In this document: in pieces, positions 2,020-57,400 of the stretch | Numbering within the stretch: position 1 is the stretch's first letter | How the letters are laid out: the number at the start of each line of letters is the position of its first letter | NCBI GenBank assembly: GCA_045837725.1 | Contig: JBEWZL010000073.1 | Location: 62,001 to 126,000, forward strand | DNA from: Vermamoeba vermiformis | Lineage: Eukaryota | Reading direction: 5' to 3' | Length of the DNA: 64,000 bases | The notes under the pieces: model-generated | What the model saw: the letters and a program-made list of their open reading frames with translations, nothing else | Told to the model about the DNA's origin: nothing | Database searches by the model: none | Position numbers and translations under genes: made by a program

Positions 2020-3847
2020 ATGATCGACAAGTCTTTACACGCACTCGCTGCTTTTGAATTAATTCAGCGTCCCAAATTCCGATTAACTGATAATACGCTC
2101 AATATACTCGTGGCTGGTCCGCCCAATTCAGGTCCGTGAATAAGACTGCATATTTTCAGGCCTATATGGATGCATCCGAGAGACTCATTTAATTTCCTTT
2201 TTAGGCAAGTCCTTGCTGGTCTCCACGCTCGTCAACGAGCCCAACACACGTGCGCACAACGAACACGTGGTCTTCACGCGCAGTCTCGCACTCACTGGCG
2301 CACTGCACTCCAAGTCACGTGTTGGCAGAGAGCGCCATTTGACATTTTTTGACGTCAAAGCTGGTCGGAAAAAAGTTCTCCCGGTGCAACTGCTGACCTA
2401 CGCGGCACTGGTAAATATTGCTATTTTTGGAAACCAGTTCTGATCGTGCTCAGAGTGAATTGTTGCTGCTCGTGGTCAATGCGCACGAGTTGTCTACCAG
2501 GGCCGAGCAGTACGAACATTCAGTGAAATTTCTCCGCGCCCAGCTGTTGAGCACCATGTTCGCGATGAGTGCACGTGATGTCGTGGTGGCACTGAACCTG
2601 CACCACGCGAGTGACCTGCACGGTGCTGAAGGTACGTCGTGCGCTATATTTAGCTCGTGATTGCAGTGCTGAACTCGTGAGCAGAGTTCACTGAAGCGAG
2701 ACAGCAATTGACACGTGTCATCAGTGACACTTGTGACATGTATCCTGCGTGGTATCCTTCGTCTGACAGGCGGTGGCACGTGGTCTACGTCCCCGTCAAC
2801 ATCAAGCGCGGCTTCAATTTGACACCTGTCAATCAGAAGTTCTCGTGGTATCACGGCGCTGATCTGTTAACTGTATTGGCGGAAAATCAGCAGCGGAATT
2901 ACTACGACGAAGATATCTGGAGCAGACTCGTCCACTCTCCGCTTAATTATCCGATGATCTCCGCGATGAGGGTCAGCGGCATCGGGACAGTGGCAGGTGG
3001 CATAGTGCTGAGTAAGTCTGGACACGGTACGACACTCGATTTGACACGTTTGACAGGTGGCACTGTGCAGTACCGCGACGACTTGCTGATTTTTCCCTCG
3101 ACGAAATTTCCCGCTAATGTGCTGGGCATTGCGACCAACAGACAACAGCCGTCAGACGCCAAGCTCTGGCCTGGTATGATGGCACAGTATTGCCTAATTT
3201 GGACTGACACGTGCCAGGTGACGTTGCGGGGATTAATTTGAGATTCACATCGGTCAACGAACTGGCCCCCAAATATGGCTACCTGACGAGTCGCAGCTAT
3301 GTCACCGCTGAGGGCGTGGCAGTGGCTCAAAACAGCGTGCAAGTGTTTGCCTTCAGAGTCGCCGTTCATGAACTGACGCCGCGCAGGCTGGTCCTGCATC
3401 AGAGCTACGTGCTGTTCTACGGCACTGCGCGCATCGTCTGTATCTTGGCGTGGAGATTTCCTGCCGAGTCCAGTGAGCGGCCGAGCGATCACGTGATCAT
3501 GGTGCCACTCACGCACTACCCTGTCACGTGCTACGCACCCAGTGACACGCAGAAGAATTTGCACGGCAAAGTGCTGGTCGTGATCAACGGCACGTGCGCG
3601 GCACTGGGCAGAATTGATCGCGTGATGCAGGGCCCCAACCCCTACGCCGCACCGACACGCCAAGGTAACGTGATGAGTGCAGCAATCAGTGCTAATAGTG
3701 TTGTTAGACTACGAGGCACAGTACGCGCAGCTCTGCACGCACCCCGATCCGCTGTTTTCAGTGAACGAGCGAGCACTGCAAGAACAATTTGTGGAGCACG
3801 TGAAACACAGTGGCATTCAAGCGACACTGATCAACAATCGCGATTGA
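2020..3847 (+). CDS. Highly divergent eEF1A/HBS1/eRF3-family translational GTPase paralog (probable pseudo-GTPase), 5 exons
   Basis: Spliced product: LNILVAGPPNS|GKSLL (P-loop across intron 2132-2204), LTFFDVKAG, VVVALNLHH, VYVPVNIKRGFNLTPVNQKFSWYHGADLL (cf. eEF1A VPISGWHGDNM...PWYKGPTLL), RVSGIGTV and WPGDVAGINLR (domain II), GKVLVVINGTCAALGRI (domain III). Confidence 0.75.
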
Positions 3848-4034
3848 CGGTGCATCAGTGGGGGCAATAGAGTCGCTTTATTGTGCTACAAGTCCATCAA
3901 TCGGCACTGCTGCACCCCTCGGGCTGGTCAGTGTTGCTCCCGTCACTGGCGCGCTGCTCTGTGGTACTGCTGTAGCTGAGTCCTGAATAGCCTGTCTTCG
4001 TTGTCTGCCACCATAAAAGTGCTCGTTCAGTGAA

Positions 4035-7000
4035 TTACTTGACTATTTTTAGCATGCGGTACAGTGTGGAATCGGGTTCGACAGGTGTCACAAATTGACC
4101 TACGGCGTGTTTCAGTGAATTCACTGCGAATTCTGCGTGCACGCGGCACACTTCGTCTTCGTCGTGGGTCTGCGAATGACACGTGTCAAACAAAAGATGG
4201 CATCAAGTGTCAACTGCTTACCTGCACGTGCTTGAGAGTGCCATAAATAGTGCGCAGATGATGAGGCAGCACTTCAAACACTTCGTCGTCGAGACCTGTC
4301 AACAGCTGTGCGTACAGATTGATGACACCTGCGTGACACGTGTCAATCACTGACTCGTACGGTAATCACATGTCGCACTCACCTCGACGCACTTCGACTG
4401 TCGTGTCAGACTGCAGCAAGGACTGGGCACATGACACGATCTCTTCCAAATAAGGCAATAGCGCGTAGTGCAGCAGTTCGCACAGTTCAGCTAAATTAGA
4501 CAGTGCACTGGCACGCATCAGCGGATCTGGATCTCGACAGCCGGCTAAAAATATCGGCACCAGTGTGTTTGCTAAAGAATTGTTAGCAGAGTTGCAAAGA
4601 CTGAGGGCTGGAATTACCATATTTGGGCAATGCTTCACCGAGACGTTGTGCGATCTATTTACTAATTAGGAAATGCTTCTACAACCAGTCCGACCTACCT
4701 GCAAAAATGCCTCGCCTATTTTTAGCCGCACTTCCAGTCGCTTAGTGAGTTCCAGTTCAGTGAACGATTTGTTCTTTGAATGCGCGCCAATCACTTCTAT
4801 TTTAGGCTTCTGCTCATTGGCACCAGTCTGATATTCCAAAAATAGCTCTCTCATCAGCGGAACAATGGTGTCAAACTCGACATCGCCCAGGGCACTAAAT
4901 CCCCGAATAGCTCCGAGATACACGTAGCTGTCATCGTCCTGCAACTGCGTGCGGAATATCTCGATGACACGTGTCAAGTGCTGCATGGTGTGCGGGTCAC
5001 GTGCCAGCACCAATCTCCGCAGCGCAATTAATCCGTGCGCGCGCACTGGCAGCAGCGGGTCATTGAGATCTCGCAGCGCAGATTCAAGCGCGTTCACTGA
5101 ATTGTCGTTCACTGAACCAGTGCTGTCACTGGTCTTGGCCCACGAGATGTCGCGATTGACAATTTTGTCGTGCAGGGCAGTGGCACTCGAGGCCAGTGAC
5201 TCGCGCGGGAACTGACCAATCAGACGCAGCGGTGCCACCAAGTCGAACAAGAGCAATTCTTCCGCGCGATCGATCGTCCGACCGCTGTGCAGCATCGTGT
5301 CCAAAATAGTCAATGCAATTTGCAGCATCTCCTCGTCAATCACGTGCTGGTCGTCAGTCACGTGCTCGGCCATGCTGTCCACGCACTGATCGATCAGCAC
5401 GCGGAGAAATGTCAAGATCTGCACGACATTACTAAATATGGAATCTTTGAACTGCTCGCACATCAGTCCCAACAGTGACAGCAGAAAAGAATTCAATTCA
5501 CTGAACGGTAGTGTGTTAGAGCGGTCTTGACTAAATTAGGAATAGGATATCATACCCTGAGTCACGTGCCACTTTGAGCTGATCGATCAACAAGTGCAAT
5601 ATTTGCACAAAATAGTCGCCAATGAATGCAGACTTGTTATTGACGCCTGTCAACATGTCAATCACGCACTGGGCCTCGACGGAGTACTCGGCCAAGCTGT
5701 TTCACTGAATTAGAATTGTTGCAAACACTGCTGCACACGTACCCCGCTGACTCGACGCGCACGAGGCTGAACAGCGTGCCCTGGTCGGTGACTTGCGCCC
5801 GATAGCGATATTGCCATTTTAGGCAATCTCTCTTGCGCGGCAGATCGATCACGATGATGTGCAGCACACGTGTGAGTTCACTGGACTCGACGGCATTGGC
5901 CCACGTGACTAACATCTCTTTGACACGTGTCAACAGCTGTTCTGTGTGCGAGTCACGCTTTGACATGCGGTACAGTGCAGCGTACAGCCCAAATAAGGCA
6001 GGAAGCACTAGATTGGCGTCAGTTCAGTGAAAGATTACTATATTTGGACTGACCTGGCGTCACAATCTCGCACATGACAGGTGTCACGTGACGCGTCAAC
6101 AGTTCGTGCAGCTCAGTGACACTTTGGTCCAGATCAGCATTTGACACTATGACACGTGTCATACTCGTTGTCACGCTGTTCAGTGAAAGCAGACCACGTG
6201 CTTGCGTCACGTGACTGGTGTCTTGGTCGAACTGTTTCATGAATTCAGTGAACGGGTGCAATATCTCGCGCAGGAGATAGTTCATCACGTGCTCGCGGTG
6301 TTGTTGCAGCAGCAGTGTCACGACACTCACCGCGCAGGACGCGAAATGACACGCGTCAGGTCCGCGCACTGTCAACAGCTGTCGCACTTGCGGACAAATT
6401 TGTGCAAAGTATTCTGCGGCTGTCAACTGACGCGGGACTGCTGTCACAATGCGCGCTGCTTGCAAATAACTGGCGGGAGATACTAGCGGAGATATTAAGT
6501 CAGGGCAGTGCAGGCAATCAAACAATTACCATTTTTGGCAGTCAGAATCGGCGTCAGCACGCCAAACAGTCCACCAGGGCGGAGTAATAGGCGCGAGAGA
6601 ATTGTTCCGATCTGTCGCGTCACGTGTGGCACTGGAGGTGATTGCGCACTTGCCAATTTAAGTAATGCGAAGAGTTGTTCCGCGAGATCGGTGACTGACA
6701 CGTGCTCAATCAGATACTCGAGCTGTGCTGCAGACCACTGTTTGACACGTGTCATCTCTTCATCCGTGCAGTTTGTCACGTGCTCAGTGCCAGTCACGTG
6801 CATGACACCTGCTACCACGTCACTCAGCACCGCTCTGTGGATTTCACTCCACAATTCATCGGCGGAAATACTTTCAATGAACGCGCGAATCACGTGCAAC
6901 AGCGCTGCAAATGAAGGCTGTGCGGCGCTGAACGAGTCCCTGGCACTCTTGCCATATTTGGACAAGTGCGGCACGAGAGCGGTGCGGCAGAGCAGTTCAG

Positions 7001-7500
7001 CCAGTCGTTGGAGCATGTTCCGCGCTGTCAAACTCAGCACTGGCACGGAGGGGCTGACACCTGTCAGTCGGAGGTCAGTATCGAGTGGTGAGAGTCTTTT
7101 GACGCGTGTCAAACACAGACCTTGACGTGCGTGTACGATGCGAGCCACGTGCCGCACCAATTCGGCGCCAGTGACACTCAGCTGTGCAGTCCAGTGACAC
7201 GTGTCAACATTCAACACCGTCGAGGGCAGTGTTGGACACGTGTCATTGGCAAGCTCTGTAGCAGTCACTTCTAAATTAGGCAACAGAGCACGCACTTGAG
7301 CCACTCGTTCAGTGAAATGTTGCGCGTAGTCAGTGATGGGCACTAGCAGCGGAGTTAGTGAGAATAAGGCAGTGTGAATATATACAATATAAGCGAGAAT
7401 AGTGAAGAGAATAGGACATGTAACATATAGAGGGTGTATTATTAATCGTATAAGTGTGTCGAATAGTGCGGTGACGTCATTACGAGAGTTCCGCAACTAT
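4035..7500 (-). CDS. TANGO6: TANGO6 / Rtp1-family HEAT-repeat protein (multi-exon; start codon not resolved)
   Basis: LRDLNDPLLPVRAHGLIALRRL, LQDDDSYVYLGAIRG, RLKIGEA, DPDPLMRASALSNLAELC, LSRLLLRPGG and AAEYFAQICPQV motifs; stop at 4035. Confidence 0.85.
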
Positions 7501-8125
7501 TCTGCACCATCAATATAGTACCCCATCGTGCATATTAATATGAGCGGTAATTAACAAAATTATTGCCGCAATTTTCTGTGGCAGTACAAGTCAGATTTCA
7601 ATCGAATGGAGTGGTCAGATCCACCCAATCGGCAAGAGATGCCTTGTTCGTACCTTCAGAGGTGACCAACAATTTAATAGCAGCGAGTAGTGACGTCAGA
7701 TCTGGTTCATTTGTCGTGCTCATGTTGATCCGCAAAACAAAATGCTCAGAACTCGTGTGCTCAAGAATTTATCCCCCATCACTCAGGCTCACTCCACATG
7801 AAAGTGAGTAGCTGTATGCTGATATAGCAACACCGTCCCACATGGGTCCGGTGCTCAAGGATGGTAAGATCGTGCTCAATTGTCTGCATCTGCAGCCAGT
7901 ACACGATAGTTCCTACTGGCTCGTATAAGGTTTCAAGAGGAGTGTCATTGATTCTCCTGTATGATATGAGGCCGCGCTTCATCGATAAAATCAAGCGGAT
8001 CTGTGTTCAGTTCATTTTATTTTTTTGACTGGCAAGACGTCAAGACTGCAGGGCTAATTGTTTATTGTAGTTGCAATAGCAGTCTTGTATATTAATATCT
8101 GTACATACTCTTCCGCTAATACATC

Positions 8126-13844: not shown

Positions 13845-16800
13845 ATGTCCTCGCTACGTGTGCGCAATCTCATTAAACGCTTCTCTGTGAATGAGACCGA
13901 ATCTAAGTTCAAATCTGAAGCGGAGAATCAGCCGAACAATACCAACAACAACACGCGCACCTCGAATAGTAATTCGAATAATAACAGCGCTATGGAGGCA
14001 TCGGACAGCGACTCGGATGTAACGGATCTGGAGCGAAAAATCGAATTATTAGCGCAAGAGAAGAACCAGGCGCGCATAGCAGTCACAACAGCGAATAATA
14101 ACAACAATAACAACAATAACAATATGACTAGTCGTAAGTATTTAATTAGAATCAGTCTGCGTTACACTGCGCGCAGATTTATTAATTATTGCGAGAATTC
14201 TACTTGGTGTTCTATCTCACCACTAGGTGCTCTAAATATGGTCATATTATACTTATTTGACCGAGTGTCAGCACTATTTATCTCGCGCCTTATAATTCTG
14301 AACAATTTTAAACTTTAATTTATCGTTAATGATCAATACTGGCCTATTAAAATACGGAGCTTAATGTCCTATATGCAACAGGTGCGCATCAGCCAGCTCA
14401 TGTCACGCCACTCGTGGAAGAGGGTGTGGATGTGGAGAGCTCGTCCGAAGAGACTAAAAATAGCGCAGCACCGCACGTGACTGATGTGCGTTCAGTGAAC
14501 GACACGTCAAATTATTTGACACCGAGTGAAGTGCGCGGTGACAACAATGATTGCAACAATTTATCAGTCAAACCAGCCCTCACCATAAATGGAAATATGA
14601 ACTATCTGACCTCCACGGAGGTCGGTGACAATGTCTATTACACACCACGTGATTCACAGCCCGAGGATAGCACGGACCATACTTCCAAATTAGGCAATAC
14701 AAACTATCTCACACCGCACGAGATCGAGGAGACACGCCAGAGCAGAAGATATTACCATAAATGGCAATCAGGGCGCCAGCACGAACTATCTGATGCCCGA
14801 TGAGATACAGCCGTCCAAAAATGGCAATGTTTATCACACCAGCACGAATTATCTGCTGCCTGGTGAAGTGTCACGTGACTCAGACAGTGAGAGCGAGGAT
14901 TTGACACCTGTCACACGTCAAAATGTCAATTACCTCACCAAGGACGAGGTCGATGAGCTCGAAGGTGACAGCGATCCAAAATTGGAAATTAAAATTGACC
15001 GTGCACCGAGCAACATGCCCAATAATGGCAATGCTGCGTCACGTGCCAGCACGACCATTGACCCGAACAATCGGCGCAGTGTGTTGTATCTCCAGCCCTC
15101 GGAGATTCAATTCTCCGACGACGATGACGACGAGCACGTGTTCGGTGCTGCAACACTGCACGTGCCAAAATTAGCACTGCCGACCGGCACTCAGCCTACA
15201 CCTGCCAAAAAAGGCAATGCCGGCTATTTTGAGAGTGCGCCGAGTCGCGGGTCCCTGCAGAGCGCGACATCGAGTGCGACACTGCCAGCGGTGACACCAC
15301 GCGTGACAGCACGTGGTCCGAACTACACTGGTCCGAGCACGCTGAGTTCACTGAATTCGGCACGTGACGAGCTCGAGGACAGCTTCAGCGACGACGAGAC
15401 TGACACGTGGAGCGACAAGGGCAGTGGCGCGCAGGTGAGTGGCAGTGTGCCAGCAGCGAGTGTGGTGCCGAGTGACAGCAGCGACATGTACTGGAACAGC
15501 GAGTACCAGCACGTGCTCGCGATGAGTGAGGGCGTCGAGAAGTATCAGCGGCTCAGTCGACTCGCACAGGACTTTGTGTACGCGGCACAGGTAAGTCACG
15601 TGCTTGTATGTGGTGCGGATCACTGATTGACACGTGTCACACGCAGACCTACGGCAAGATCATCATCACGGAGCGCTACTTGCCCACGCACCGCAAGACC
15701 ATCAAGAACGTGCAGTCGATGGGCGGTGTGGCTGGCGGTACGTGATAATTGCCTAATATAGCAAGTGCGCTGACTGACACGTGCCAGGTGACAAGTACAA
15801 AGTGCAGGGCATTCTGTTCAAGTTCGCGGTGGACACCAATCTCAAAGACAAGGGCTACGTCTCCTTCGACTACTGGATGTACGGCGGATATCGCCAGTCG
15901 GACCGGTACGCGGCCAAAGCTGCCGGTCACGAGCTCAGTAAGCTATTTTTAGCGCAATATGATCGTCACAGCCATTTGTGGTTGTATCTCGCGGTAGTGA
16001 CTCACCAATTCATGAACAGAGGGCCTGATCAGCTACTACAATGCCACTGTGCCAGGGCTGCACTATCCGCTGATGGCACTCATTGACTACCGGTACGGTC
16101 TATTTCCTTATTAGGCAATGTGTCACTCACAAACCTCCACAGTGGCTTCCGTTTGATTGCCATGTCCCTCGTGCCAGTCACTTCCCAGACTCTCAAATAT
16201 GGCAGTGCTGATGCTGGGAAAACAATCCACACGGACATTCCCGAACTGAATCTAAAAATGGAAACGGTGGCACAACGCCTCAATCTCAAGAAACACCGCG
16301 CCGGGGACAAAGAGATTGCGGGCCCGAGTGACATTGAGGGACATTGTTCCGCCGACAACAAGTTCTACGTGCTAGACTTTGCCAGAGTTTTTCCGCCCGA
16401 GGCACCGCTCAAACCGTATGATTCCTAAAATGGTAAATGCGTGAACTAACGTCCCTATTTTTAGCCTTCGTCGCGGTGATCGACGCGTGTACTATCAGCT
16501 GCTGCGCGCGGAATTAGTGCGGAAAAACCCAGTGGCACTGAACAGCGACGTGTTCACCAACTTCAACACGCACAATCAGGAACAGGACGAGCGCGAGGTC
16601 GAAGAGGCCACGCTGCACTTGTTCAACCGCGTGATTCCAGGTCTGTCACGTGATGCTGTCGTGTTTCACTGAATCAACTAACGGCCTTTGTCATTGCTCA
16701 GATTTTGCAGCCAAAATAGGCAAAATGTCCAAAGTACAACTGCAAAAGACGTCCATCATTGAAGAGATGCATCGCGAGGGTGTAAGGAGCTAAATATAGA

Positions 16801-19800
16801 CCGCAGTGGTCAGCGTCACTCACTTGCCTAATTTAGATAAATATCCGACACTTGGGACGAGTCCGCGCCCTGATCGATCTCAAGGCCTCAGGACCGCGCA
16901 CCGTGCTGCTGATCGAGGTGAGCTATTTTTAGCTGCGGACGTGCCTCCGATGCTGATCTTTGCATTTGCAGATGATAGCGCGCGTGGCCAAGAACAAGTG
17001 GCGGCGCATGATGCGGCACAAGATGAAGTTGCTGCAGTTGCCGAGCGAGGATCCGTACCGTCAACTGACCGCGCAGTACTTGAATCTATTATTAGGCCGC
17101 GATGAACTGCGCTCTGAACGGCTCTGGAAAGTTGAGCTCAAGCGGCAGATCGTGGTGAAATTTCCCGAGGCCCTGGGCGAGTACCGCGCGAGCAGCGGCG
17201 AGATTAAGCGCGAGATGGACGAGGACTACGATCTGAAACGCGATTGGTCGAGCGAGGACCTCGTGCACCTGCTGACACGTGTGCAAGAACTGTGCGGCGT
17301 GGCACTGTCCAAGCAAGCGAGCGAAGAATTGCAACAATTTCCGCGCAGTATCTCGCTGCTGACGAGTGACATCGAGACCATTCAGCCACGTGTCAAGCAC
17401 TTGAATGTGGTCGAAGAGGCGCAGGCCAAGCTGCTCGCCTTTCAGTTTCAGCGCGCCACGGGTGCACAGGCCACGCGACTCTGGGCCCTGGTCAATGCTA
17501 AATTTAGACTCGCGGTGGCATCCTCGACCAACAGCGCGGAGACGATCTATTTGTGGGCACGCGTGCTGTTCGATCAGGCGCGGCGTGTTTCAGTGAACAG
17601 CGAGCACCTGCTGATCGAGTCACGTGACAAGTTGAAGTCGTGCGTGGAACTCATGTCCGACAAGCACGTGGCCTGGTTCACACTCGGGCACGTGATCATG
17701 GAGCTCAGCATGCGCCAGCACCACTCGTTTCATGAACAGGTGCAGCTCTATCACGAGGCTGCGGTGGCATTTCGCCGCGCCATTCAATTGGACAGCAGTC
17801 ACGTGGACGAATTGTTGCAGTTGTGCACGGAGAATTGTCGCCAGATCACGCAGATCACGTGCTCAGCGCGCGGTGCGAGTTCAGTGGCCCTGGAAGAGCT
17901 GTTCAAGTGCTCCTATCAGCTGTTCAAACTCGTGCTCGAACATCGGTTCAGTGAACGGATCTACATTCAGCTCGGAAATCTCCTGCTCGACTGGGCGCAG
18001 ACCAAGTCCGCAGCAGCAGCCGACGAGCACTACATCCGCGCTGCCATCATGTACGAGGCTGCACTGCGCTGCTCACCGCTGCTCATCGACCAGGGCACGC
18101 GCTATCTCATTCGATCTCGCGACCAGATTGACGATCACGTGACTATCAAACAGATCGCTCCCAACGAGCTCGGACTCAGCAAGCCAAATATAGCCTCACG
18201 CCTCACCACGCCACGTGTCGAGAGCGGAACAACTCCGCAGCAGGGTCGATCGCGCGAGAACACCATTTCTGGCGGTGAACGACCAAATTTGGCAATGTCG
18301 GAAGGCATCAAACCGCTCAATTTGAGTCGCGTGGTGCCACCAGACAGCGGAAAAACACTCAAAGCGAGCAAAAATCGGCCCACCATTCCGCTGTCGCAAT
18401 TAACGCAAAGTCAAGTGGCGGAGAAATCTCAGAGCTCGGAGGAGGACGCGAAGCACGTGATCGAACACGACAAAGTGGTGGAAATATTTGCAAAGATTGA
18501 TGGCGTGTGGACGGTGAGTGCGCGCTACGAACTCCCAAAAAGGAAATCGGACAGCTGGCTGTGGTTCAATCTGCTGTCAACTTCGAGTGACACGCTGGCA
18601 CTGGACAGCTGTCGCAACATGTTCATGAACGACGACACGTGCACGGTGATTCGACGCGATCGCGTGGTGAATTTGTGCGCCGCGTACGAGGGCACGCAAT
18701 TCGTGTTGACACGTGTCACTCTGAAGATCCCCTGCGATGCTGTCAACAAGCGCGGAAGAATTCTCGTGTTTGCGCTGGACAAATTGCCAAAAATAGACGA
18801 GTACGAGCTGTTCAACGACCACACCGCGGAGAGCTGGAAAAAGTTCAAAGTGCACGTGACGAACAAGCGCAAAGCGGAGCTGATTGGCGAGGGCAACGAA
18901 CCTGTCACGTGGATTGATTTGCGACACGAGGGCTTGACTAAAAATGGAAATTTCTATCTCGTTAAGAAGAACATCGCTTCTAAAAGAGGAAAATACTTGC
19001 TCATCAAGGTAAGTCATTGCAGTAATTTTTGTCGATAAAGAACTCACAGTACCTTGCCAAATTTAGATAATTAATCCGCCCACCCCGCACGACATCAACA
19101 GTGCCGCGGAGGTGCCCGAAGATATTCCGCTGACCTTGCGCTACATGGGCTTCAAAGGCTATCAAACACTGACACCGCTGAATGACACGCAACACGTCAA
19201 CATGTCAATCACTGACCTCGATCGCGCGCAAGGATTGCAACTGTTCGATCACGTGCTCGAAGACCAAGGCGCGCGATTGGCCAGTGTGCTGCGGACCATC
19301 AAGTGCAGTCCGCTGCTGGCATCGCTATTTATAGTGCTCACGCGCCACAAGACCAAATTAGGCAATGCCATGTTTGGCGCGCATCAGAGCTCGTTCTGCA
19401 CCGTGTTCTATCAGCCCTCGCGCGTGGTGCTGCCACGAGTTATTCCGCTGCACGCGACGAACACGAGCAACGACACGAACAACACGTCGCTGGATCTATT
19501 TTTAGCCGATTGTCCCGCGCAGGTCAATCTTCCGCTGGCCAAGAAGTTGTGTCAGTTGTTCCCGAATGCAATCCGATCTCTCGATCTCGCGGGGGCAGAT
19601 CACTTGACCGATGAGGCTATTTATGTCTTTGCCAACAGCTGTCAACGACTGGCGCACGTCAATCTGTCAAAATGTCCGAAAATCTCCGAGCAATCTGTCG
19701 AGTACTTGCTGGAGACCAAACCAGGGCTCAAGTCGCTATTATTGGACTCGTGCACGCAGTTCACTGACACTTTGGTGGCATCGATTGCCAAATTTGGTAT

Positions 19801-23316: not shown

Positions 23317-23816
23317 ATATGATATAAAGAGTAGCAATTAATTGATAAACTGGTGTAGAACAACACAGTTACAAGGGACACTTTTCTTTTCAGCTTTGCG
23401 TAAATGTTTTAGTTAGAGAAAGAGCATGGCCAACTCCACCATTGAAATTGCCGGCTCAATGAAGACAGGAAACACTGTTAACAAAAATAATGACAAAGTT
23501 TCCAGCTCATCATGAAAGCATGGATGACTGCAACTTATGATGAGCTTCCAGACTACAAGCAGTAAAACTCTGAACAAGGGGATAGGTTAGGGAATTCTAA
23601 ACCTTGAAAGACTTCTCAAACTTATCAAAAGGAATGTCCCCCAGACTGAACTTTAACCAATTGTGCATTATTTTAATGATTCTTAATCTACTAGTTGTGG
23701 TGCTAGCTTTTCAAAGTTTCAGCGATTGCTGCTACAATGTTCATTTATATATGCAGTGTACATGATTAAGCATACCTTATCCGGATAAGTTTTTACTTTG
23801 CCAGGACCAAAACAAA

Positions 23817-24456: not shown

Positions 24457-24590
24457 AAAGGCTCAGCCAGCCTGGAGGTTGGCCAGGCCAAGTTGGCCAG
24501 TGTGGCGAGCCAAGCCGAGGGGGATGGCCGGTCCGGCTCGGCTCGGCTATCCGGAGCGTTTCGGCTATCCGGAAGCAGGTAGTGGAAATG

Positions 24591-28341: not shown

Positions 28342-30786
<2,445 letters not shown>

Positions 30787-38274: not shown

Positions 38275-38807
38275 CACGTGTCACTATGAAGACTGCATCA
38301 ATATTCGTCCCACGTTGTTGTCAGTCAGATTCGAAGTGACATCCAGCAATTGTAAATAAACATCGGTTCACAAGCCACTTAAAGCTGATTCCTCGAATAG
38401 ACGCGCGAGAGTGTCACCAAAGCACGTTAAATGAGCATTAATTAGTGTTTCGAAACTGTGTGAATCAAAATTCAAAACATTAAGTAGCGCACTCAAGATT
38501 AATTAACGAACTTATTACTGACATGTCGTGAATAAAAGATATTCGTGTCACAGATATTAGAGAGGCGTGTAGTAAGATTACAGTCAGTTTAATAAATTAA
38601 AACTATGGTGAATGATAGTACAAATTAAAAGTCGAAAATTTCCGCTGCGAGGCAGAACAGTTTTGTTATTAACAATTAATAACTCCGGTGAGGGGTGTGT
38701 TGGGGGTGGTGTGACTATTCATAGGGCGAGGTGGTGGTGGGTTGAATTAAATAATATGGACAAGTGAGGCAAGGGGAGGTGGATGTGGGCTGCGTGTGAT
38801 TAAAATT

Positions 38808-40057: not shown

Positions 40058-40333
40058 TTTAAAACGTGACTGGTGGTGAAGTGTTGCGTTTGATTGATTA
40101 AAATTTAACCGCAAGTTTCAATTTTTTTTTTTGACCTGCCAATAAAAATCATAAATTCAACTCGAATTTGGAGCTCCCGCGCGAGATACAGTTTAAAAAG
40201 CTATTTTTGGCCTTTGCTCGTCTGTCATTCGCATCACAACCGTTCAACCTACCGACACATTTGATGTCCGAGCGGAATTATTATCACTTGCAACAACACA
40301 TCCACAGAAAATTTTAAAATTAAAACCACGAGC

Positions 40334-41744
40334 TCATTTCTTGCTTGCTTTATTGTGATTACTCGCTTGAAATGAAGCGTTGTACTCGTCAGTTTTGTTG
40401 CTTGTGTTCATGGTGCGCTGCACTCGCTCGCGCTCTTTGTTGTAGCTCTTCAACATGTCGCGGAACGAAGCCAATCTGCGCAACGGTACAGCGGGCACGT
40501 TCTTCTGCGCATTGTTAACGAGCCACTTGTGCTGCAAACACTCTTTACTCGTCATCCTCCGCTGCGGATCAGTGACGAGTATTTTTTGGATAAAGTCTTT
40601 GGCCTCGGTGCTGATTCCATCCCAATCTTGTGCCGGAAATTCGTACTTGCCGGCAGTAATCTGTTCAAATAGCTTGCTCTGTTGTTCACCAGGGTCGTAG
40701 AAGGGTGGATAGCCGCACAGCAAGATGTAAGTGATCACGCCAATGCTCCAGATGTCCACTGCGTGGTCGTACGCGCCCATTGCATTCACCACTTCAGGAG
40801 CTAGTGTTGAAATATTAGATAGATCCCTTTGCAATATATCATGACGGTGTGACCATAGCAACATATTAAATTCAACAGTAAACACAAGTAGATGGGGCTT
40901 ACCAGCATATTCAGGGGTGCCACAAGCAGTGTGCAGATTGTTGTCGCCTAAGAACTCTTTTGACAGTCCAAAATCACTGATCTTCACTACATCGCAGTTG
41001 TCGTCCATAGCAAGCAAGTTCTCGGGCTTCAAATCTCGATGCGCGATCCCATTGTCGTGCATGTAACTGACGCCTTCGAGTATCTGTCGCACGATATTCG
41101 CGGCATCCTTCTCGCTGTATTGACCTCGCGCGACTATATGATCAAACAGCATGCCTCCCTCGCCCCTAGCAATGGCCAAAATCAGCTAACCGGTTAAATT
41201 TTAAATTGGATCCAAGCGGTTGATCCGAATTTGAATAGCGTGTATTGGCAGTACTTACAGTTCTAACACTAAATATATATGTCCATCGTGATCGTACACT
41301 TCCAACAGCTCAATAATGTTTGGATGTTTCAATCTGCGCATGTTCTCAATCTCGCGCTGAAGCATTTGCAATTGATGTGCGTCGCCAAGGGCTTCTTTAT
41401 TGATAATTTTAATAGCAACTTTCTTCTTATTGTCCTTCCTTCGAGCTTTTCTAACTACTGAAAACCCACCCCTAGATGCGACAAAAAAAATTTTAATAAT
41501 TACTGTTGCCAAGTCTTTATTGCTTGCGTATAAATTTGATACATTGAGGTCAGGTGCATATTAATTGATCAGTACGCAAACAAATAGCACACAAGCTATT
41601 AATTGCGCAAATTACACAAAAAATCTTTTAACGGATTTCAATTTGTTGAATGAATATAAAGCGGTCAAGAATCTTTTAATATAGACATTACCATCCTAAT
41701 GCATCGCCGAATTTATACACCTCGTGCACTTTCTTCTGAGACAT
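40334..41744 (-). CDS. CAMK-group Ser/Thr kinase (CaMK1 / MLCK-A-like)
   Basis: GGFSVV...VAIKII, HPNIIEL, HRDLKPENLL, DFGLSK, TACGTPEY|APE, DIWSIGVITYILLCGYPPF. Confidence 0.95.
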
Positions 41745-48440: not shown

Positions 48441-51400
48441 ATGTCGTGGCTCAAACAACTCTTCAGCAACAGACGCAGCACGGCCTCGTCGTCCACGCGC
48501 TCATCGGGCTCAGAACACAGCACGGGCTCGAATAACAAACCTTCGCTCGACTCGGATGACACCAAAGAAATTCAACCGCCGTCACCCAACCACTACTTCG
48601 AGTATGTAGCACACTATATATACAATGCTGGATTATTGTCATAGTATCGATCACATTACTGCTCGTGCGGATCCGTTTTTCAAATAATTATTTTATCGTG
48701 CGCTGTAATGGCATTGTAATTGCCTATTAATCGCGTCACAGTAATCAATATACAATAATGATATGAATAATGATGTTCATACAGCGTTAAATGCTTGAAA
48801 ATTTCGGATCTCACCTTTAAATGTTCATTTAATCATTTAAGCTCGCTGTATTTAATGTAATTAATGCTCACATCACGTTTATACGATTTATTTCTGTCAT
48901 TTTGACAATTAACGGTGAGAGATCTGACAGATCTAACCTTCTCGCTGAAAGATTCTTTACTGAACGAGCACCCTTATTGCCACTATATTGTGAGGAACAG
49001 CGCGCTAATGCCGTTCTATTTTTAGATACGAATACGATGCAGTCGCGCTTCTAGAACACTGGCAGAAGTTTCACAGTGATCTGAGCGTGCAGTCATTGCA
49101 AGAATTTATCGGAGAATATCGCCGACAAGAGGAACTGCTCGGCACAAAAGAGGAATTTCACGCGCAGCGACAGTTGATTGGCCTCAGCTTGCCTTATTTG
49201 GAACCCCGCTTGCTCGCAGCACTCGAGCAGGGCACGCACCAGCACGATGCGCACACGAGCACGTGGGTGGCCCTGGTAGAGATCCTCAGCCGCGCCTCGT
49301 ACAACATTGCCGTGCTGTCGAGTGAGTCGTGTCGGCGGCTGATTGGTCAGTTAATTGGCTATTTTCGCGCGCTCATCGCAGACCTGCGCGGCGATGCCAA
49401 AGATGGCAATCGGACCTCGCTGCTGGGCAGTCATCGATCACGTGAGGATCTTGCTGTTAATGAACCAGCGGCGGAACTCGATGCGACGAGTCTGTACCGT
49501 TCACTGAATGGTTTGCAGGCCCTGGTGACGACCTTCAGTCAGCTGAGCAGCCCTGGGCACGCGTGGCGCCATCAGTACCAGATTGAAGCGCTCAAACTGC
49601 AGCTCAATGTGCGCGGCATGAGTGCGCTGATTGACCTCAACAAACAGACGCTGCTCAGCAATGACGTCATCAACTTGCTCGTCGGTACGTACGGCACTTG
49701 CCTTATTTGGTAATATCTCGCTCACTCATGCGCAGATCTGTTGCGTGTCGTACACGGTCTGACAGCGGAACAACTCAACGGATCACGTGTCACCTACGAG
49801 CTGACCATGAGTGCGCTGAATCTGATTGGTGGCCTGGTGCACGACTGTCACAACGCACAACCTTTTTTGGACAAATCTCCCGCACTGTTCGAACTGCTCG
49901 CCGATCATCTCGGCTGGCCCAGTGACGTGTATGTGACACGTGTCAATGCGGGTACTTTGCCATTGTTTATTGACGTGCTATTTTTAGCTGCCCTCGATGG
50001 AAGCTCACTGCAGACACGCAAGTGACACCTGTCATATCCGAGCACGATCTGTTCATGTTTGAACTGCTCACCATTCAAGTGTTCACTGAACTCAGGTACG
50101 CGCCTATAAATAGCACACTCGTTCACTGAACTAACACTGTCACGTGCCAGCATTCTCAGCTCGACGAACATGCGGCGGTGGCGCACGACAGGTGGATTTC
50201 AGCGCGTGATTGATTGGGTGCTCTGGACTGCTGTCACTTTCCAAAAAAAGCTATCCGAACCCACACCTGACTCGATATGGCAAGTGGCATCGTTCACGCC
50301 GTACCTGTCGCGCTTGACACTCGGCAAACACGTGACGAGTCAAGGAATGACACGTGTCACTTCAGACGATGAAATTTCACCGCGCGAGACAGCCAACAGT
50401 GCCCTGACTCCGACACCTCCGCGTCCGTGGCACATTTGCAATGTTCCGCTGGCCATGATCTTTCAAGTGCTGTACTGTCTCTGTGTGGGAGGCCTCCAAG
50501 CTAATTATAGCCACCAGACCAACACGGCCAATTCTCCGAATTTAAATTTGCAGGTGTTGAATATATTGATGGATCTGTTCAACAGCGACATTCGACAGAC
50601 GCCGCAGAACATTGTCGCGCGCGAGTGGCTGAGTGACACGTGTCCCGAGTGTCAACTGCTGGTCTTGGACTTTGTGTCGCGCTTGGCGGTAGATTTCCCA
50701 GCTGTCAAACCGCAGCTCTTGGCGTGCAATCTGTGGCCCACACTCAGCTCGCAGTACTTCTTTGCACCGCTGCTCTGGCACGTGACTGATGCCACGGCGC
50801 GCGGGCTAAATATAGAACACCCAATCACCAAGAACATCACGGGCACGTATCTATTTTTGGAACACCGGCGCTACCTGTTTCAACTGATCGAATTCTTGGC
50901 GACACTTGGTGATAGCTGTCACTTTGAGTGCGCCACGCTGCTCGTAAGTACAACGACATTTCCTTATTTGGCAATGTACTAACCACACACCAGACACTTT
51001 GGCAGCAGTGCTACGTGCAGTTCTACAAGAGTTATTCCGCCGTGTTGACAGCACAGCAGACGGCCCTGAGTCAGGCCATGGACAGCAGTGACCACCACGT
51101 GACTTCGCGGAAATTATCTTTGCAGCCATTCTTCAACGCGACACTCGTGCTCGAGTCACGTGATCACAAACCAGATCTCGCGGCGTATCTCGAGGCCTAT
51201 TATTGGCTGTCACATTTGCTGTCGCGTTTGCTGTCACAAAGCCGCGGAGAAATGACGCGTCAAATACTGCTGCACTCCATTCAGCTAAATATAGGCACAG
51301 GGCAGGTGCTGGTGACGTCATCGACTGCTGTGCCCGAGTCTTCAGTGAAACACGTGCCCTTGACGCTGCCACTGCTCTGCAACACGGGTCTGCTGTTGAC

Positions 51401-54400
51401 AGGTGTCAATGCGTGTCAACCAGAGATCAGCGAGCACGACCGCCAAGATCGTCACGTGACACGTCAACACGTGCTCGATCTGATCGGTGCGGTGCTGGGA
51501 ATGACATCCAGCGCCACTCCCAGCGTGACACTGGCCCTGGTCGATGACGCGCTGCTCGAGCTCATGTTCGGACTGCTCCGCGAGTCTGCCATGCGACGCT
51601 GGAGCTATAATTGGCTCATCTCAGCTCTCGGAACAGTGCCGAGCAGTGCCGAGGACAAAAATCAGCTGCTAAAATTAGCTACAAAATATCTCAACTATTT
51701 GTGCGCGCTGAGATTGGAGCTCAAAGACGAAGAGCAGCTGTTGCTATTTTTGCTGCAGGGTGAGTGAGGCTATAAATAGAACGGCGCAGTACTCATCACG
51801 TGACAGGACTGCGCATGGTGGCAGGAGGGCGGAACAATAAATCTCAACAAGATCTCCTGCGCGAGGCCGGCGCGTTTGTGAAGCTGTCCAACATGTTGAC
51901 AGGTGTCAAAGCGGTGGATCGACAGCGATTGGACGAATTGAGCAGTCACGTGATTGGCTGTTTGACAGCACTGATGGCCAACAACGCGGAAAATAAGGAA
52001 TTCTTTTCCAAGTCGATTGGTGTCACGCAGTTCAAGACGCTATTATTAGAAGCATACGACAGCAAACTCACCGCACGTGTGCTGAATGGATTGCTACTTA
52101 TGGTAAGTGCAGTGTTGCCGATGCCAGTCTGACACTTGCCTAATTTAGATGACGGACGGCCAAGATCTGGACGATGATTCGCCGAGCAGTCTGATTCAGA
52201 ACAGTTCTATAGCTTTGCTGTTATTCTCGCTCACACCTAATTGGGCGGATGAGGAGCAGGTGACGCTGTACGATCACGTGATTCGCTTGGTGTCCAAACA
52301 CGACATCAATCAGTCCATTCTCGCCAACACCAATCTCATCTATCAGCTGCTCGATCTCCTGCCCCAGATCACTGCTGGACCCGTGCAAGGTATGCGCGGT
52401 GTATTCACTGACACGTGACCTGACAATGGATGTCTATTTTTAGAACGCGCGCTGTCCCTGGTGGCACTGCTGTCCAAACAAGGCATCACCGTGCGCGAGT
52501 TGAAAAAGCTGTTCACGCTGTTCAAACCTGTCGCTGATCGGCGCGTAAGTCACTCTTTGACACGTGTCACCCAGTGCTGATCTATTTTTAGTCTCCGCTC
52601 ACCCCCGTGCTCGTGCAAGTGCTCGAAGCAGTGGCCCGTGCCAGCGCCGATGTGATCAGTGCCTCGTCACGTGATCTCGAGAACAGCACGGTGGCACTCA
52701 CTAATAATAGCACCACGCAGTTCACGGCCAGTGCAGGCTCGAGCTCGTTCTTTGAATTCAACGGCCGACACAGTGCTGTCACCGTGCTGTCAACGTGTCA
52801 GTGGCCGCTGGGGCTGGATGACAGCGACAAGCCCGCGTGTTCGGTGGCACTGTGGCTGCGCGCGACCTCGTGGACGGACCCCTCGCTGGCCCCGCTCTAC
52901 TTGCCGCGCCTGTGCTCGCTGCTCAAGTACGACGGTGGCACTGGTGTCGAGATCTATTTTCGGCCCTCGTGGGACACCTCCACTGCGCACCTCGTGGTAT
53001 CTTTGCAGCCATCACGTGATCAGGCCCCCGTGCTCGTGGAGTTCACGGCCCATCCGCTGTTGGAGCGCGAGTGGTATCACGTGACATTGACTTATATGGT
53101 CACCTCGCGCAAGAACACTGAACTGCACTTGTACGTCAACGGCCGTCACGTGCAGCACGAGACTGTGCGCGCCCCGTACATCTTCAAGGTGAGTGCTGTC
53201 CTAATTAGGCAATCACGTGCTGACCTCTCGCGCAGGGCTTGGACTGTGTGCGCATCGGTTCGAATGCGGAAGTGTACCGCACTGCCAGCACGATATACCG
53301 CGAATCGAGTTTTTACGGACAGATGGCCAATGTCTACTGGTTCAGCGACGAACTCACCGCACCGCACGTGGCAGCTATTTATAGACTCGGACCCAACTAC
53401 ATGGCCAACTTCCAGGGCGACAGTGCTGCGGAGGTAGCGGAACAACTCGATCTTTCAGTGAACCAGGCCATGCAGCTGTTGAGCGAACTGCGCGCCATGG
53501 TGCACGTGGCATTCATGGCACAGGCCTGCGTGCAGCTGTCACCAGATGTCAAACTCAAGTCCGTGCCAGCACTCATTGCAAATGCCCCGTTGACACCTGT
53601 CAATGAGCGTGCCGTGTCAGAAGCCGATTCGCTCTGTTACGACTGCAGTCCTGAGTCACTGCCACGTGCTCGCCGTCACGCCGTGCTCACAGGTCAGTGT
53701 TTGACACGTGTCACTCGCATATATATCATTGCAAGTGTTTCTAATTCTCCGCGTGACAGGTGTCAGTGTCATCACGCGCTCGATTCTGCACGACATTGTC
53801 AACTGTCTCGGAGGTGTCTCCGCACTGTTGCCACTGTTCCAACAGCTCGATCTCGCGGAGGATTCCGATCACGTGACTGCACCGCTCTACACCTTCGCCG
53901 CGGACATTGTGCGCGTGATTGCCTGGCTCTTGGTGGCACCTCCGCGCTCGGAGAAAACAGCTAATAATAGCACCGCGGACGAGTGGCACCGCCAGCACCA
54001 AATTAAGTTCTATCACCAGGGCGGCTTCCCAATCGTGTCGTATCTCCTGCTGAGATCGTCGCCGCAGAATCTCACCATTGAGCTGCTCGATGCTTTGCAA
54101 CTATTTCTCAAAGAATACAAACAGCCCAACACACGTGTTGGCATGTTGATCGGTACGATGAAATTTCATTGCAATCTCCCCGCTAATCTCCGCACAGAAC
54201 CACTCGAAGACGATCTGTTTTTGCACTTGTTCTTCAATTTCCATTTATGGATATACGCCGAGTACGCCGTTCAGAAGCACCTGTTGACACGTGTCTTGCC
54301 GTTCTACGTGCACAAAATCAAACGTCTGCGCACCGTGTTTGGCGTGCAGCCATTTTTAGACGCACTGCGGCTGTACTACTGGACAGCACGTGACAGTCAC

Positions 54401-57400
54401 TCCATGGCCGTGGAGCCCGTGCACCACCCCGTGACTGGCACCTGTGTCGGACGCAGACCCGATGATCATCACGTGATCGATCTCCAGCGCGATCTCGTGG
54501 CCCTGGTCGAACTCACCGTGCAGGACGGAATAACTGTCGATGAGACACGTGCTCTGCTGTGAGTATTCGGCCCTCGTTCAGTGAATGGTGCGATGCTAAT
54601 ATTTCCTAATTAGGCAATTCATGATTGACTGCAAAGAGAACGGCCAGCTCATTTTAGTGCTGAAAATGATGGTGCGGCTATTATTAGCACCAAATCAGAC
54701 GGGCACTTATCTACTGAACGCGCTGTTGACACTTGGTGGCACTGACACGCTGCTGCTATTATTAGACAACCCAAACAAGTCCGTGCAGGTCTTGGTGCTG
54801 ATGCTGATCGATCTCATTATAGAAAATGTCAAATCGACACCTGCACGAAGTGTCACTGAGGGACAGGACAGTCCTGCCTTAAATAGAAATCAGTCTGGAC
54901 CCCTCGCAATCATTGCCACAAATTCGAGCAAAGACAGTGCCGTGCTGACCGACTCTTTGGCGCGCTTGCCCCCGATATTTCCTATTAAGGCAATCACCAA
55001 CACGAGCACTGCCTCACCCGTGTCCACGCCCACATTGACATCGAGTGACAGCGCGGTGGCACTCACTGCGGAGAAATCTCCGATGCAGATCAGCACCCCC
55101 GTGATGAAATCTCGTTCTCGGAGATTGTTCCGCCAGAAATCAGCCTCGCGCGTGAAGATCAGTCAGATGATGGCACGTGCTGTCAGTTTGAGCGAAGACA
55201 TGTCGCCGTTGACAGCTATTTTAACACATCACCTCACGGGACACGTGGATCAGCCGAACAACACCAATGTAGCTAATAATAGCGATGAGTCACGTGACGA
55301 CAGTGCCGAGGGAGATCTCGCGCGCAGTGCATCGAGCACGCGACACGAACTGTACAACATTCTGTTCGCCATGCTCGTTGGCAAGTGGCACGAGACGTCA
55401 AGTGTCACGGTGACAGGTGTCAATGACGATCTTGCGGAGCCACACGTGGGCAAGGTACGTGCTGCGGTTATTTATGGCACCAAGATCTAATTTTAGCCGC
55501 AGATCTTCGTGGACGACAAAGTGTCCCTGACGCACTTTCCTGTTTTGGAAGTGCTGTTCGGTCTGGTCCAATCACACGCCAGCACGACACATCTGTTGCT
55601 GCAAGATCTCGCGCTCTTGTTGCAGCGGCACGACAACTGCCACGCCTTCAAACGACTCGCTGGCTGGCACGTGCACCTGCTCTCCTTGCTGTTCGACGGT
55701 ATGTGCGCTATTGCCTAATTAGTACATGCCTCGCTAACCCTCGCGGTGACAGCGGACAGCGTGACATTCGACATTGTGTGTCAGATCTACAAGTGGCTGC
55801 TGCTCGATGCGCTGCAGTACGACAAGGACGGCTGGACACTGCTGTACGAGACCGAGGCCTACTGCACGCACTTCAACGACAAGGGCGTCGATGCACCGCG
55901 GTTCATGAACCAGTTGATCCGCTCGGTGGTGGCAGAGCTGTGCAAGGAGTCGTGGAACTACAACAAGACGACCAAAGACACCTCGCGCATGAATGTGCTG
56001 CGCGGCCTGCACGAGCGCGACAGTGCGCTGAAGAACAACTTGATGCTGTTCATCTTGTTCGTCGAGGAGTACCTCTACTACCGCTTGGATGGCACTGCGG
56101 AGGACAGCAACGAGCGCACTTCGGATCACGTGACGGACGAGGACGACGAGGAACAACAGCGGAACAATTCGCTCGATGAAGACAAGTTCCACAACTATCA
56201 CGTGACCATGATCATTCGCGCACGTGGTCCCGAGGGTCACGAGTACGACGAGGAGTACAACACCGCACGTGATGTGGCACGTGGCCGCATTTGGCGCGAT
56301 GTGGAGATAGCAATGAATCTCGTCGATCTCGTGATGAATCTCAATCTCGCCAAGATCATTCAAATCTCCGTGCCACAGCCCAATTCTTCTGGCACACTCA
56401 AGCGCGTAAGTGCTAATTATAGCTCCTGCACGTCATTGCTAACGAGCTAAATTTAGACCATGGTGCGTGTGCGTGAAGGTGGTCTGCGCCAGCTCGTGCT
56501 GCGATTGGTCAGTGCGTGTCTGTACGAGCACTCGGAGACTGACAGCGGAGATCACGCGAGATCAGTGCGAGATTTCCTCGTGCGCACCATCCCGCAGCTG
56601 CACGCCATCATGCGCAAGAAGGCGAGCACTGAAGAGGTGCACTACGTAGCATTGCACTTGTTGCGCGCACTGAAATTGCGGCACCTGGCAGCCACGTGGC
56701 AGGAAATCTCGGGCACGAGTCCCGTGAATGGCGCGAGTCCAGCGGCGCAACTGATCAGCGACACGATCAAAGAGACCAAAGAGAGTGCGGTGCTGAGCAA
56801 GTCAGCCCTGGTGCGCGATCACGGCGATCTGTTGGTGATGATCCACTGGCTGCAAGATCTGCTCGTCAATCACGTCAAGTCGCCGCTCATTGCCTCGTTC
56901 AAGAAAGACAATCTCCCGCACGAGCAGCAGCGCAAAGTCAAAGATGTGGTGGCACAGTTGACGCAGGGCTATCACGCCAATGGTCCGCTCAATCTCCAGC
57001 CCGGAGCTGACTCCGGTCACGTGTTCAAAATCAGCAGCAGCACCTATCAATCTCCGCTGCTATCTCCGACATTCATTGCAACAATGTTGACGCTCATCCA
57101 GGGCAGCACGGCCTCGACCTCGCTGACGTATCTCGAAGCATATCTCGCGTCACGTGCTGCACCGCTGACCACGCACGAGATTGACATGGCGCAGTCCATT
57201 CTCAAGACACGTGTCAAATGGCTGGCCGTGTCACAGCGGCAGATTGACGAGTACTTGACGCGGCAAAATCTGAACATCATGGAGACCACGCGGCGCATTG
57301 AGCACGTGAAGACAACGCTGTTCAGTGAATCGCAGTTCGAACAGCGCATTCATGAACTGAAGATGTCACTCAAAGATGCCTACGCGCGCATTGCCAATCA

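Follow-up and report, generated by a model that had tools for sequence, protein, structure and literature searches.

Transcription factor site-like words packed into gene bodies around one repeat island per contig, a candidate centromere

Gene content of the window and its palindromic sites

The 64-kb window analysed here (C73:62001-126000 of a 43.3-Mb, 309-contig assembly, G000) carries intron-containing housekeeping genes, including TANGO6/RTP1, ABC-F, a leucine-rich repeat (LRR) protein, MetRS, ALG11, CDT1, G-alpha, a kinase, Omp85/SAM50, ThiF/NAE1 and neurobeachin. A 12-bp palindrome, TGACA-NN-TGTCA, recurs through these genes and is one of about a dozen transcription factor (TF)-like words that rise together. 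Weakly constrained gene bodies near one spot per large contig are packed with such words, densely enough to alter the encoded proteins. The motif-bearing features of the window, together with one internal contrast, are as follows.

2709..55422, no strand: GC-rich domain with 40 TGACA-SS-TGTCA sites, saturated with TF-like motifs
3990..7600 (ends approximate), minus strand: TANGO6/RTP1 gene; nine sites (seven exonic, two intronic), about 21 motifs/kb in two exons
14694..21077, plus strand: large gene with C-terminal LRRs; six sites, about 13 motifs/kb
22308..23074, plus strand: gene that we take to be PGS1-like; three sites, two intronic and one across a 3' splice site (TGACAG/GTGTCA, the slash marking the junction)
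36317..38283, plus strand: CDT1; first exon with 18 motifs/kb, sites at 37767 (intron), 38189 (MTRV) and 38272 (stop codon)
38834..41700, minus strand: G-alpha and CaMK-like kinase genes; without 12-mers and with introns that are AT-rich (GC 0.28 and 0.37), the internal contrast
49009..60343, plus strand: neurobeachin/BEACH gene; N-terminal half with 11 sites, BEACH-WD40 exon with none

The interval 14694..21077 is the part of the LRR gene, presumably Clu-like, that aligned to the relative described below, and the 5' end of this gene lies further upstream. Homolog searches pointed to no closely related species; the best named homolog of TANGO6 was that of Balamuthia (32%), a weak hint at an amoebozoan lineage.

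An earlier note on this DNA, made by inspection, had put the palindrome and its variant at about 40 iterations. Exactly 40 were counted, with the spacers CG (21), GG (10) and CC (9) and no other. In 100 dinucleotide shuffles of the window the mean was 0.03 sites and the maximum 1. Half-sites separated by 2 bp gave these 40 sites, while every other spacer length from 0 to 11 gave between 0 and 5, and the sequences flanking the 40 sites are mutually unrelated. The positions listed in that note were all right, six of them being off by 1 base (true starts 6075, 7055, 23063, 43451, 50348 and 53754).

Sites were placed in exons or introns by manual reading of their context, plus the joints of spliced contigs (11440, 11576, 22308) and gaps in homologs (4334). 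By this reading 23 sites are exonic, 14 are intronic, two span a 3' splice site (23063 and 53754, both reading TGACAG/GTGTCA), one, at 38272, starts with the CDT1 stop codon (TGA), and none is intergenic. The 12-mer is no promoter element, and the description of the sites as lying largely in coding DNA fits the 23 exonic ones but not the intronic, splice-spanning and stop-codon sites. Because the introns are short (about 45-70 nt, from spliced-contig joints), the density of the 12-mer per base is higher in introns than in exons. At 22 of the 23 exonic sites the encoded peptide is L/M/V-T-R/P/G-V, and at the remaining one (7195) it is DTCH. The imprint of LTRV-, MTRV-, LTPV- and LTGV-type peptides was thereby borne out, while the DTCQ peptide named with them was not assigned to a coding frame of the window.

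Co-enriched words

Beside the 12-mer, the words enriched in the window are RTCACGTG, GCACGTG, CTAW4TAG, CCW6GG, TTCASTGAA, GCGGAACA, ACCAGGGC, GGTGGCAC, GATCGATC and TGACAGCA. When words were counted de novo, both over the window and over 149 kb of motif-rich sequence, RTCACGTGAC, GCACGTG, CTAW4TAG, CCW6GG, GTTCASTGAAC, GCGGAACA-TGACAGCA and others came out. RTCACGTG is the commonest word, and we take the families represented to include E-box, MEF2 and CArG/Mcm1 sites. The word CACGTGAC occurs 179 times per 100 kb of the motif-rich sequence, whereas arm samples totalling 155 kb gave 7 per 100 kb. The 12-mer is also sharp: the 149 kb hold 129 exact copies versus 47 variants with one mismatch in the outer ten positions, a ratio which by our own arithmetic is about 80-fold over 1:30.

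The dinucleotides CC/GG (0.65) and TA (0.64) are depleted near islands of the kind described below and CA/TG (1.35) is enriched; the corresponding arm values are 0.86, 0.78 and 1.06. Near-identical sequences around motif pairs were found on separate contigs (C41:77225, C103:67566 and C111:19447; C153:10861 and C202:18083), pointing to duplicated genes or repeated segments.

A repeat island recurring once per contig

Within the domain lies a motif-free island, with the following features.

23300..28300, no strand: repeat island, motif-free and CpG-depleted (observed/expected 0.43, GC 0.41); candidate short regional centromere
23817..24460, plus strand: element of about 640 bp with terminal inverted repeats, like a miniature inverted-repeat transposable element; copies 80-95% identical at the islands of other contigs
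27432..27708, minus strand: inverted partial copy (about 75%) of 23870-24175
26080, 27120 and 27557 (span 26080..27570), no strand: three GTTCT-N4-AGAAC sites, an island-restricted palindrome and candidate centromere-protein site
24614, 27317 and 27378 (span 24614..27397), plus strand: three GGTTCAAWTCC modules, with no tRNA or Rfam match

Owing to the inverted copy at 27432..27708, the island is framed by inverted repeats. The GGTTCAAWTCC modules presumably resemble the tRNA B-box; tRNA and Rfam searches with the island gave 0 matches, and three open reading frames (ORFs) in it had no Pfam match. An open frame of 284 codons inside the island (25981-26835, plus strand), without Pfam match, may be a mobile-element remnant.

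Relatives of the island were found on C11, C209, C260, C48, C216 and C300 with 77-95% identity, and no arm sample or large CpG-poor block matched it. The CpG observed/expected ratio across islands is 0.37-0.66. Genome searches with parts of the island reached at least 39 contigs (40 of 91 candidates scored), 27 contigs (38 matches, complete) and 10 contigs (14 matches, complete). A search with GTTCTDYDNAGAAC reached at least 28 contigs among the first 51 sites listed, with 125 and 127 matches on the two strands versus 40 and 32 for the reversed control. On each contig the matches fall into a single cluster spanning no more than about 3 kb; at least 59 contigs have one, a total that leaves out two single matches on C12 and C30. 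The core TTCT-N4-AGAA occurs 15 times in 15 kb of five islands, not once in the rest of the window and 11 times in 569 kb of other loci. The longer GTTCT-N4-AGAAC is mostly GTTCTGCAAAGAAC or GTTCTGCATAGAAC, and 49 of the first 51 sites listed lie in one-per-contig clusters; by its distribution this palindrome is a candidate centromere-protein site and could serve as a quick centromere finder. Tandem repeats of 19 bp (GGACACCCTGTCCATGGAC-like), related to the ends of the 640-bp element, were seen in the islands of C11 and C48 (L091:1151-1293 and L030:2022-2135).

The telomere repeat is TTAGGG, and telomeric ends were found at 1 of 20 and 1 of 4 contig ends examined in two samples. The island lies 79 kb from the telomere on C8, about 104 kb on C44, 144 kb on C209 and 571 kb on C260, and a fixed distance from telomeres (79-571 kb here) is ruled out. 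Seven of the 59 located islands lie within 5 kb of the contig start.

Distribution along contigs

Genome-wide, TGACASSTGTCA occurs 3,977 times in 43.3 Mb (92/Mb), with 10 occurrences of the reversed control, and reaches 625/Mb in the window. In samples of 5 kb along C11 (797 kb) and C209 (649 kb), GC and motif density peaked together, once per contig. Three further peaks, covered as contiguous stretches, each hold a CpG-poor, motif-free island of 2-5 kb related to window positions 23.3-28.3 kb. A profile by distance from the island was drawn over seven contigs, with the window and CpG-poor pieces excluded; known motif peaks had guided the choice of four of them, and another is the contig of the window. 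In this profile GC falls from 0.50 in the first 20 kb to 0.39 at more than 250 kb, the density of all motifs falls from 6.4/kb near the island to about 0.8/kb far from it, and the 12-mer goes from 250-530/Mb within 30 kb to 28-125/Mb beyond 45 kb. The joint rise of words and GC spans about 30-45 kb around the island. Of three contigs picked by island alone, C278 and C282 proved motif-rich in patches (up to 58 and 49 motifs per 5 kb) and C76 motif-poor. The island of C3 was placed at 446 kb by the GTTCT-N4-AGAAC search, and a 12-mer peak lies there too.

Pairs of TGACAGGTGTCA and CACGTG gave a wider sample: 75 of the 99 in the genome are on island-bearing contigs, 68 of these 75 no more than 50 kb from the island, and the other 24 are on contigs without a located island. 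On contigs above 400 kb, 23 of 26 pairs lie within 50 kb of the island versus 5.0 expected, hits on one contig being non-independent. Single 12-mers are far less concentrated, with 5 of 18 inside that distance. The earlier note had thus missed that the 12-mer is one of many word families, that it is denser in introns, and that it peaks together with GC around a one-per-contig island lying inside the window itself.

A mixture of two organisms in the assembly is ruled out, as the gradients are smooth along single contigs. Nearness to any CpG-poor block was likewise rejected as the cause: the C73 blocks at 15-35 and 150-175 kb lack the island repeat, and three sampled C73 stretches of normal CpG content outside the window are motif-poor. 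Large AT-rich, CpG-depleted blocks (observed/expected 0.2-0.4) at C73:15001-35000, C73:150001-175000 and the end of C209 carry AAA-ATPase, FAD-binding, P450 and methyltransferase genes. They have the look of gene blocks that are methylated and silenced, and bear no relation to the repeats of the island.

In S. pombe, Candida tropicalis and Komagataella, inverted repeats frame short regional centromeres. The island, a short locus found once per contig, resembles these one-per-chromosome loci, and the CDEI/Cbf1 system of budding yeast with its pericentromere, in its inverted repeats, tRNA-box-like modules and a distinct zone of 30-50 kb on either side. Yeast pericentromeres are GC-poor and not saturated with TF sites, whereas here the E-boxes are in the flanking genes and not in the core. 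From these sequence features the island is probably a short regional centromere. It could instead be a dominant replication origin or a pairing or recombination centre and no centromere, the motifs and GC marking its domain by drive or selection. One copy per contig fits any single-copy chromosome organiser, and a GC peak is expected of a high-recombination centre more than of a typical centromere; on the other hand, the depletion of CpG, the inverted repeats, the breaks of the assembly at islands and the variable telomere distance are as expected of centromeres, and a switch in GC skew was not apparent by eye at the islands. We regard such a non-centromeric organiser as improbable.

Genes that carry the motifs, GC content and peptides

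Near-island ORFs differ widely in motif density. Those of URB1, UTP10, TANGO6, CDT1, Roco and the LRR gene are motif-rich (10-26/kb), and those of SAHH, Sec61, TIP49, ribophorin, IleRS, a proteasome subunit and the CaMK-like kinase of the window are motif-poor (0-1.3/kb). Genes whose expression is probably high stay motif-free. FAN1, for which low expression is expected, lies 30 kb out and reaches only 0-8.5 motifs/kb.

With motifs masked, the median GC content at fourfold sites was 0.65 in 83 near-island ORFs versus 0.43 in 53 arm ORFs. Within the domain this masked value correlates with motif density (rho 0.38, p 4e-4), which implies a general bias towards GC alongside that for motifs. The AT-rich words CTAW4TAG and CCW6GG rise too and so need more than a GC bias. 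In introns, GC is 0.44-0.49 for motif-rich genes versus 0.28-0.37 for motif-poor ones, by approximate, hand-set boundaries. G-ending, apparently non-optimal codons also rise. In the proteins, HV is enriched 4-fold, HVT 29-fold and [LMV]T[RPG]V 4-fold in near-island ORFs.

Comparison with a relative and with homologs

Two metagenome contigs (L025 and L026) represent a relative with 79-82% identity to window positions 14.8-21.1 kb, and their motif load is similar to that of the window. Fourfold sites are identical to the relative at 47 of 57 positions inside motifs versus 389 of 629 outside (p 0.0015), and intron bases at 83 of 103 versus 171 of 378. Amino-acid identity is alike in the two compartments (145/171 and 1344/1584). 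Five of six 12-mers are common to window and relative, versus 18% for other exonic 12-mers, and each lineage has one private 12-mer, differing by substitutions. Silent differences inside motifs number 36 versus 92.5 expected. An intergenic element of about 45 bp stands on both contigs of the relative (end of L025; L026 at about 1050-1090) and is absent from the aligned window positions.

As a further possibility, bound DNA may simply mutate more slowly and pericentromeric mutation may be less AT-biased, for example through early replication, letting words and GC build up with no fixation bias at all. The deficit of silent differences and the retention of five of six 12-mers agree with such a shelter. 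A loss lowered about 2.5- to 10-fold cannot, by itself, yield a more than 1000-fold enrichment or the ratio of 129 to 47. Moreover, synonymous one-step neighbours of motifs were completed in the other lineage at 8 of 16 sites versus 2.6 expected (shuffled words, 42 versus 60.3), more often than neutral, which points to a favoured gain as well as a slowed loss. Shelter as the whole explanation appears quite unlikely.

Transposon footprints or a dispersed repeat, which a palindrome in thousands of copies might bring to mind, would be marked by indels, target duplications or shared flanks. None of these marks was found: flanks are unrelated, only substitutions and no indels separate the sites from the relative or from homologs, and the real repeats, in the island, lack the motif. 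For the aligned sites this origin is refuted, and in general it is scarcely credible. The earlier note had named such footprints among what would refute its reading, and had asked whether the motif peptides are lineage-specific substitutions. Among 23 TANGO6 homologs, all aligned without a gap at the motif, none has the HLTRV of site 4965, in favour of such substitutions; the L..V chemistry is often kept. The homolog test covers this one site well, and 120 BEACH homologs covered no 12-mer site.

Candidate binding proteins

The genome has ten Homeobox_KN matches, with the recognition helices WFINARRR, WFTNARRR and WFINARQR (MEIS/PKNOX/TGIF-type), and one TALE protein (L015) matches PKNOX1, MEIS and TGIF structures. 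At C263:147376-148471 (L017 and L024) two identical TALE homeodomain segments stand inverted about 1 kb from each other, and an island lies no more than 20 kb away. TGIF1 binds TGACAGCTGTCA as two monomers (PMC6158717). Like the sites of TGIF1, MEIS and PKNOX, on which two homeodomains sit, those here are 12-bp palindromes of TGACA half-sites. The TGIF1 spacer is GC (PMC6158717), whereas here CG exceeds CC/GG and GC is far rarer. Over the window and other loci of the genome, some of them overlapping, the spacers are CG in 163, CC in 69, GG in 55 and GC in 7 of 313 sites; the TGACAG half-site of the TGIF1 crystal site, with its GC spacer, accounts for 0 of 40 in the window and 7 of 313 overall. 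The TALE dimer geometry originally claimed is thus supported by inverted TGACA half-sites, a 2-bp spacer and encoded TALE proteins, but not by the spacer of TGIF1.

The centre of the 12-mer is CANNTG and five helix-loop-helix (HLH) loci are present, making a basic HLH protein on this centre a rival binder; TALE is the better candidate. A TALE homeodomain protein is moderately likely as the putative binder of the 12-mer. That the sites form an ordinary TALE regulon, with functional exonic and intronic enhancers, is very improbable. TALE genes are present and the sites are conserved, but the target genes are functionally unrelated housekeeping genes, density tracks chromosome position, promoters are without sites, and a dozen families co-vary.

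Proposed origin of the motif-rich domain

We propose that a DNA-binding protein of the organism itself, most likely a dimer of TALE homeodomains, would recognise TGACA(CG/CC/GG)TGTCA with high affinity. Words of this kind would build up base by base where constraint is weak, that is, in introns, at synonymous positions and in variable protein segments of weakly expressed genes. The build-up zone would extend about 30-45 kb around a short CpG-poor repeat island present once per chromosome, probably the centromere. The likeliest force would be molecular drive, a non-adaptive bias in fixation: when homologous copies undergo gene conversion, the protein-bound allele may be cut less or be the donor more often, and bound words would then spread. 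Such conversion would also lift GC at neutral sites. Highly expressed genes would stay clean through strong constraint on codons or protein and through heavy transcription evicting factors, and promoters through selection on regulation. The fixation bias would be weak and indiscriminate across many unrelated word families.

The sharpness of exact words, the reduced loss, some excess of gain, the many families, the avoidance of constrained genes and the rise of neutral GC together argue for a weak fixation bias. By our own arithmetic the roughly 80-fold last step corresponds to a scaled strength near 4, which predicts a loss cut about 13-fold and a gain raised about 4-fold; these factors are near those seen in the comparison with the relative, on small numbers. 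Two Spo11-type loci in the genome also count in favour. From these patterns, conversion could well be the driving force. The whole chain, in which binding-biased and GC-biased gene conversion act together on the bodies of pericentromeric genes, is plausible while falling somewhat short of probable.

Several results weigh against this proposal. The gain test comprises 16 sites in one gene and no 12-mers; E-box classes gave 0 of 4, and some completions are interconversions of CArG and MEF2 words. Conservation of protein columns under motifs is not significantly different (BEACH 0.58 versus 0.50, p 0.13; TANGO6 0.45 versus 0.51, p 0.075), and selection predicts the same conservation of silent sites. 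Classes of expression were inferred from gene identity and codon bias. The elevation of GC is gene-specific, intergenic DNA being AT-rich, and a purely regional conversion does not explain it by itself. Two contigs picked by their islands are patchy or weak, C76 with 4 and 4 motifs per 5 kb and C260 with a low density. Most of the 3,977 12-mers are in chromosome arms, about 400-fold over the control, and the island therefore amplifies the 12-mer only about 4- to 5-fold. No contig examined has telomeres at both ends, and the contigs may fall short of whole chromosomes. Yeasts usually have GC-poor troughs at centromeres and low crossover near them, the opposite of the GC peak here.

An adaptive role against silencing, as a boundary, is the main rival and would account for much of the same evidence. 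Occupancy by abundant nucleosome-displacing factors, together with GC-rich sequence, would keep CENP-A or heterochromatin off weakly transcribed genes, much as the periodic A/T clusters (PATCs) of C. elegans work, and highly expressed genes would be protected by their own transcription. The gradient is centred on a CpG-depleted island, enrichment is in presumed low-expression genes, silent and intronic sites are conserved, and there are three or more DNA-methylase loci; the commonest words presumably match Cbf1-type and Mcm1-type sites. Many unrelated families nevertheless rise indiscriminately, including the TGIF-type geometry of a repressor. None of the 40 sites falls in a promoter or in intergenic DNA, the genes sampled next to the large C73 CpG-poor blocks are motif-poor (only three samples), and the rise of G-ending codons does not fit either. 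We consider this role unlikely, yet worth keeping in view. The mechanism may be drive or selection; the phenomenon is real, genome-wide and apparently undescribed.

Relation to known systems

The bacterial DNA uptake sequences (DUS) of Neisseria and uptake signal sequences (USS) of Pasteurellaceae are similarly short protein-recognised coding words in hundreds to thousands of copies that raise encoded tripeptides, and the amino acids under them are about as conserved as others (PMC2817400). Unlike those, the present words occur in a eukaryote, in a dozen families, also in introns, and graded around one locus per contig with a GC peak. An over-represented coding word that imprints peptides was found here too, whereas one dominant word spread along the chromosome was not, a dozen families peaking at one locus per contig. 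We know of no uptake receptor for the words found here.

Cyanobacterial HIP1 (GCGATCGC) is likewise a highly iterated palindrome, for whose creation a repair-bias model was proposed, but it is one word tied to cognate methyltransferases (PMC4390886), while here density is positional and the CpG-free CTAW4TAG, CCW6GG, TTCASTGAA and TGACAGGTGTCA take part. High iteration of a palindrome is shared; DNA_methylase has 7 matches at 4 places in the genome, and CpG is absent from 19 of the 40 sites and from several of the co-enriched words. PATCs are a pervasive gene-body feature set by chromosomal domain, with a proposed protection near repressive chromatin, but are 10-bp periodic A/T tracts in non-coding DNA (PMC4947018), unlike the discrete TF-like words in exons with raised GC here. 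The words here are discrete and GC-balanced, 23 of 40 sites being exonic. The pattern is thus likened to DUS, HIP1 and PATCs, yet fails a defining feature of DUS and of PATCs.

Within the literature searched, whose coverage is incomplete and whose texts were partly accessible, neither pericentromeric genes saturated with TF words nor this island had been described, and the exact 12-mer appeared only in two unrelated virology papers. A 2026 centromere atlas lists Amoebozoa as unrepresented (10.64898/2026.09.17.752431), and a further report gives Acanthamoeba centromere positions as still needed (PMC9528979). It is possible, and suggested here only tentatively, that the pattern is a eukaryotic counterpart of uptake-sequence drive, in which factor occupancy biases conversion and pericentromeres write the TF repertoire into genes and proteins, exposing short repeat-framed GTTCT-N4-AGAAC centromeres. 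If so, a TF motif conserved at silent or intronic sites would not have to be regulatory, and DNA-binding proteins could shape exons and proteins by neutral drive, so far described for bacteria. The over-represented words would be a ready list of the organism's TF specificities. There would also be a sequence-only map of at least 59 candidate centromeres with a candidate centromere word, for a lineage that is probably Amoebozoa, and a GC peak around centromeres contrary to the usual trough.

Other observations

A frame of 186 codons at 2681-3241 (plus strand) holds two 12-mers (LTRV and LTPV) and has no Pfam match; we take its TVAGG..GHG stretch to recall FAD-linked oxidases. Motifs also double as splice signals, CTATTTTTAG or similar words ending or sitting in introns (16960-16971, 19057-19066 and 20683-20692), and intronic TGAC may act as a branch point.

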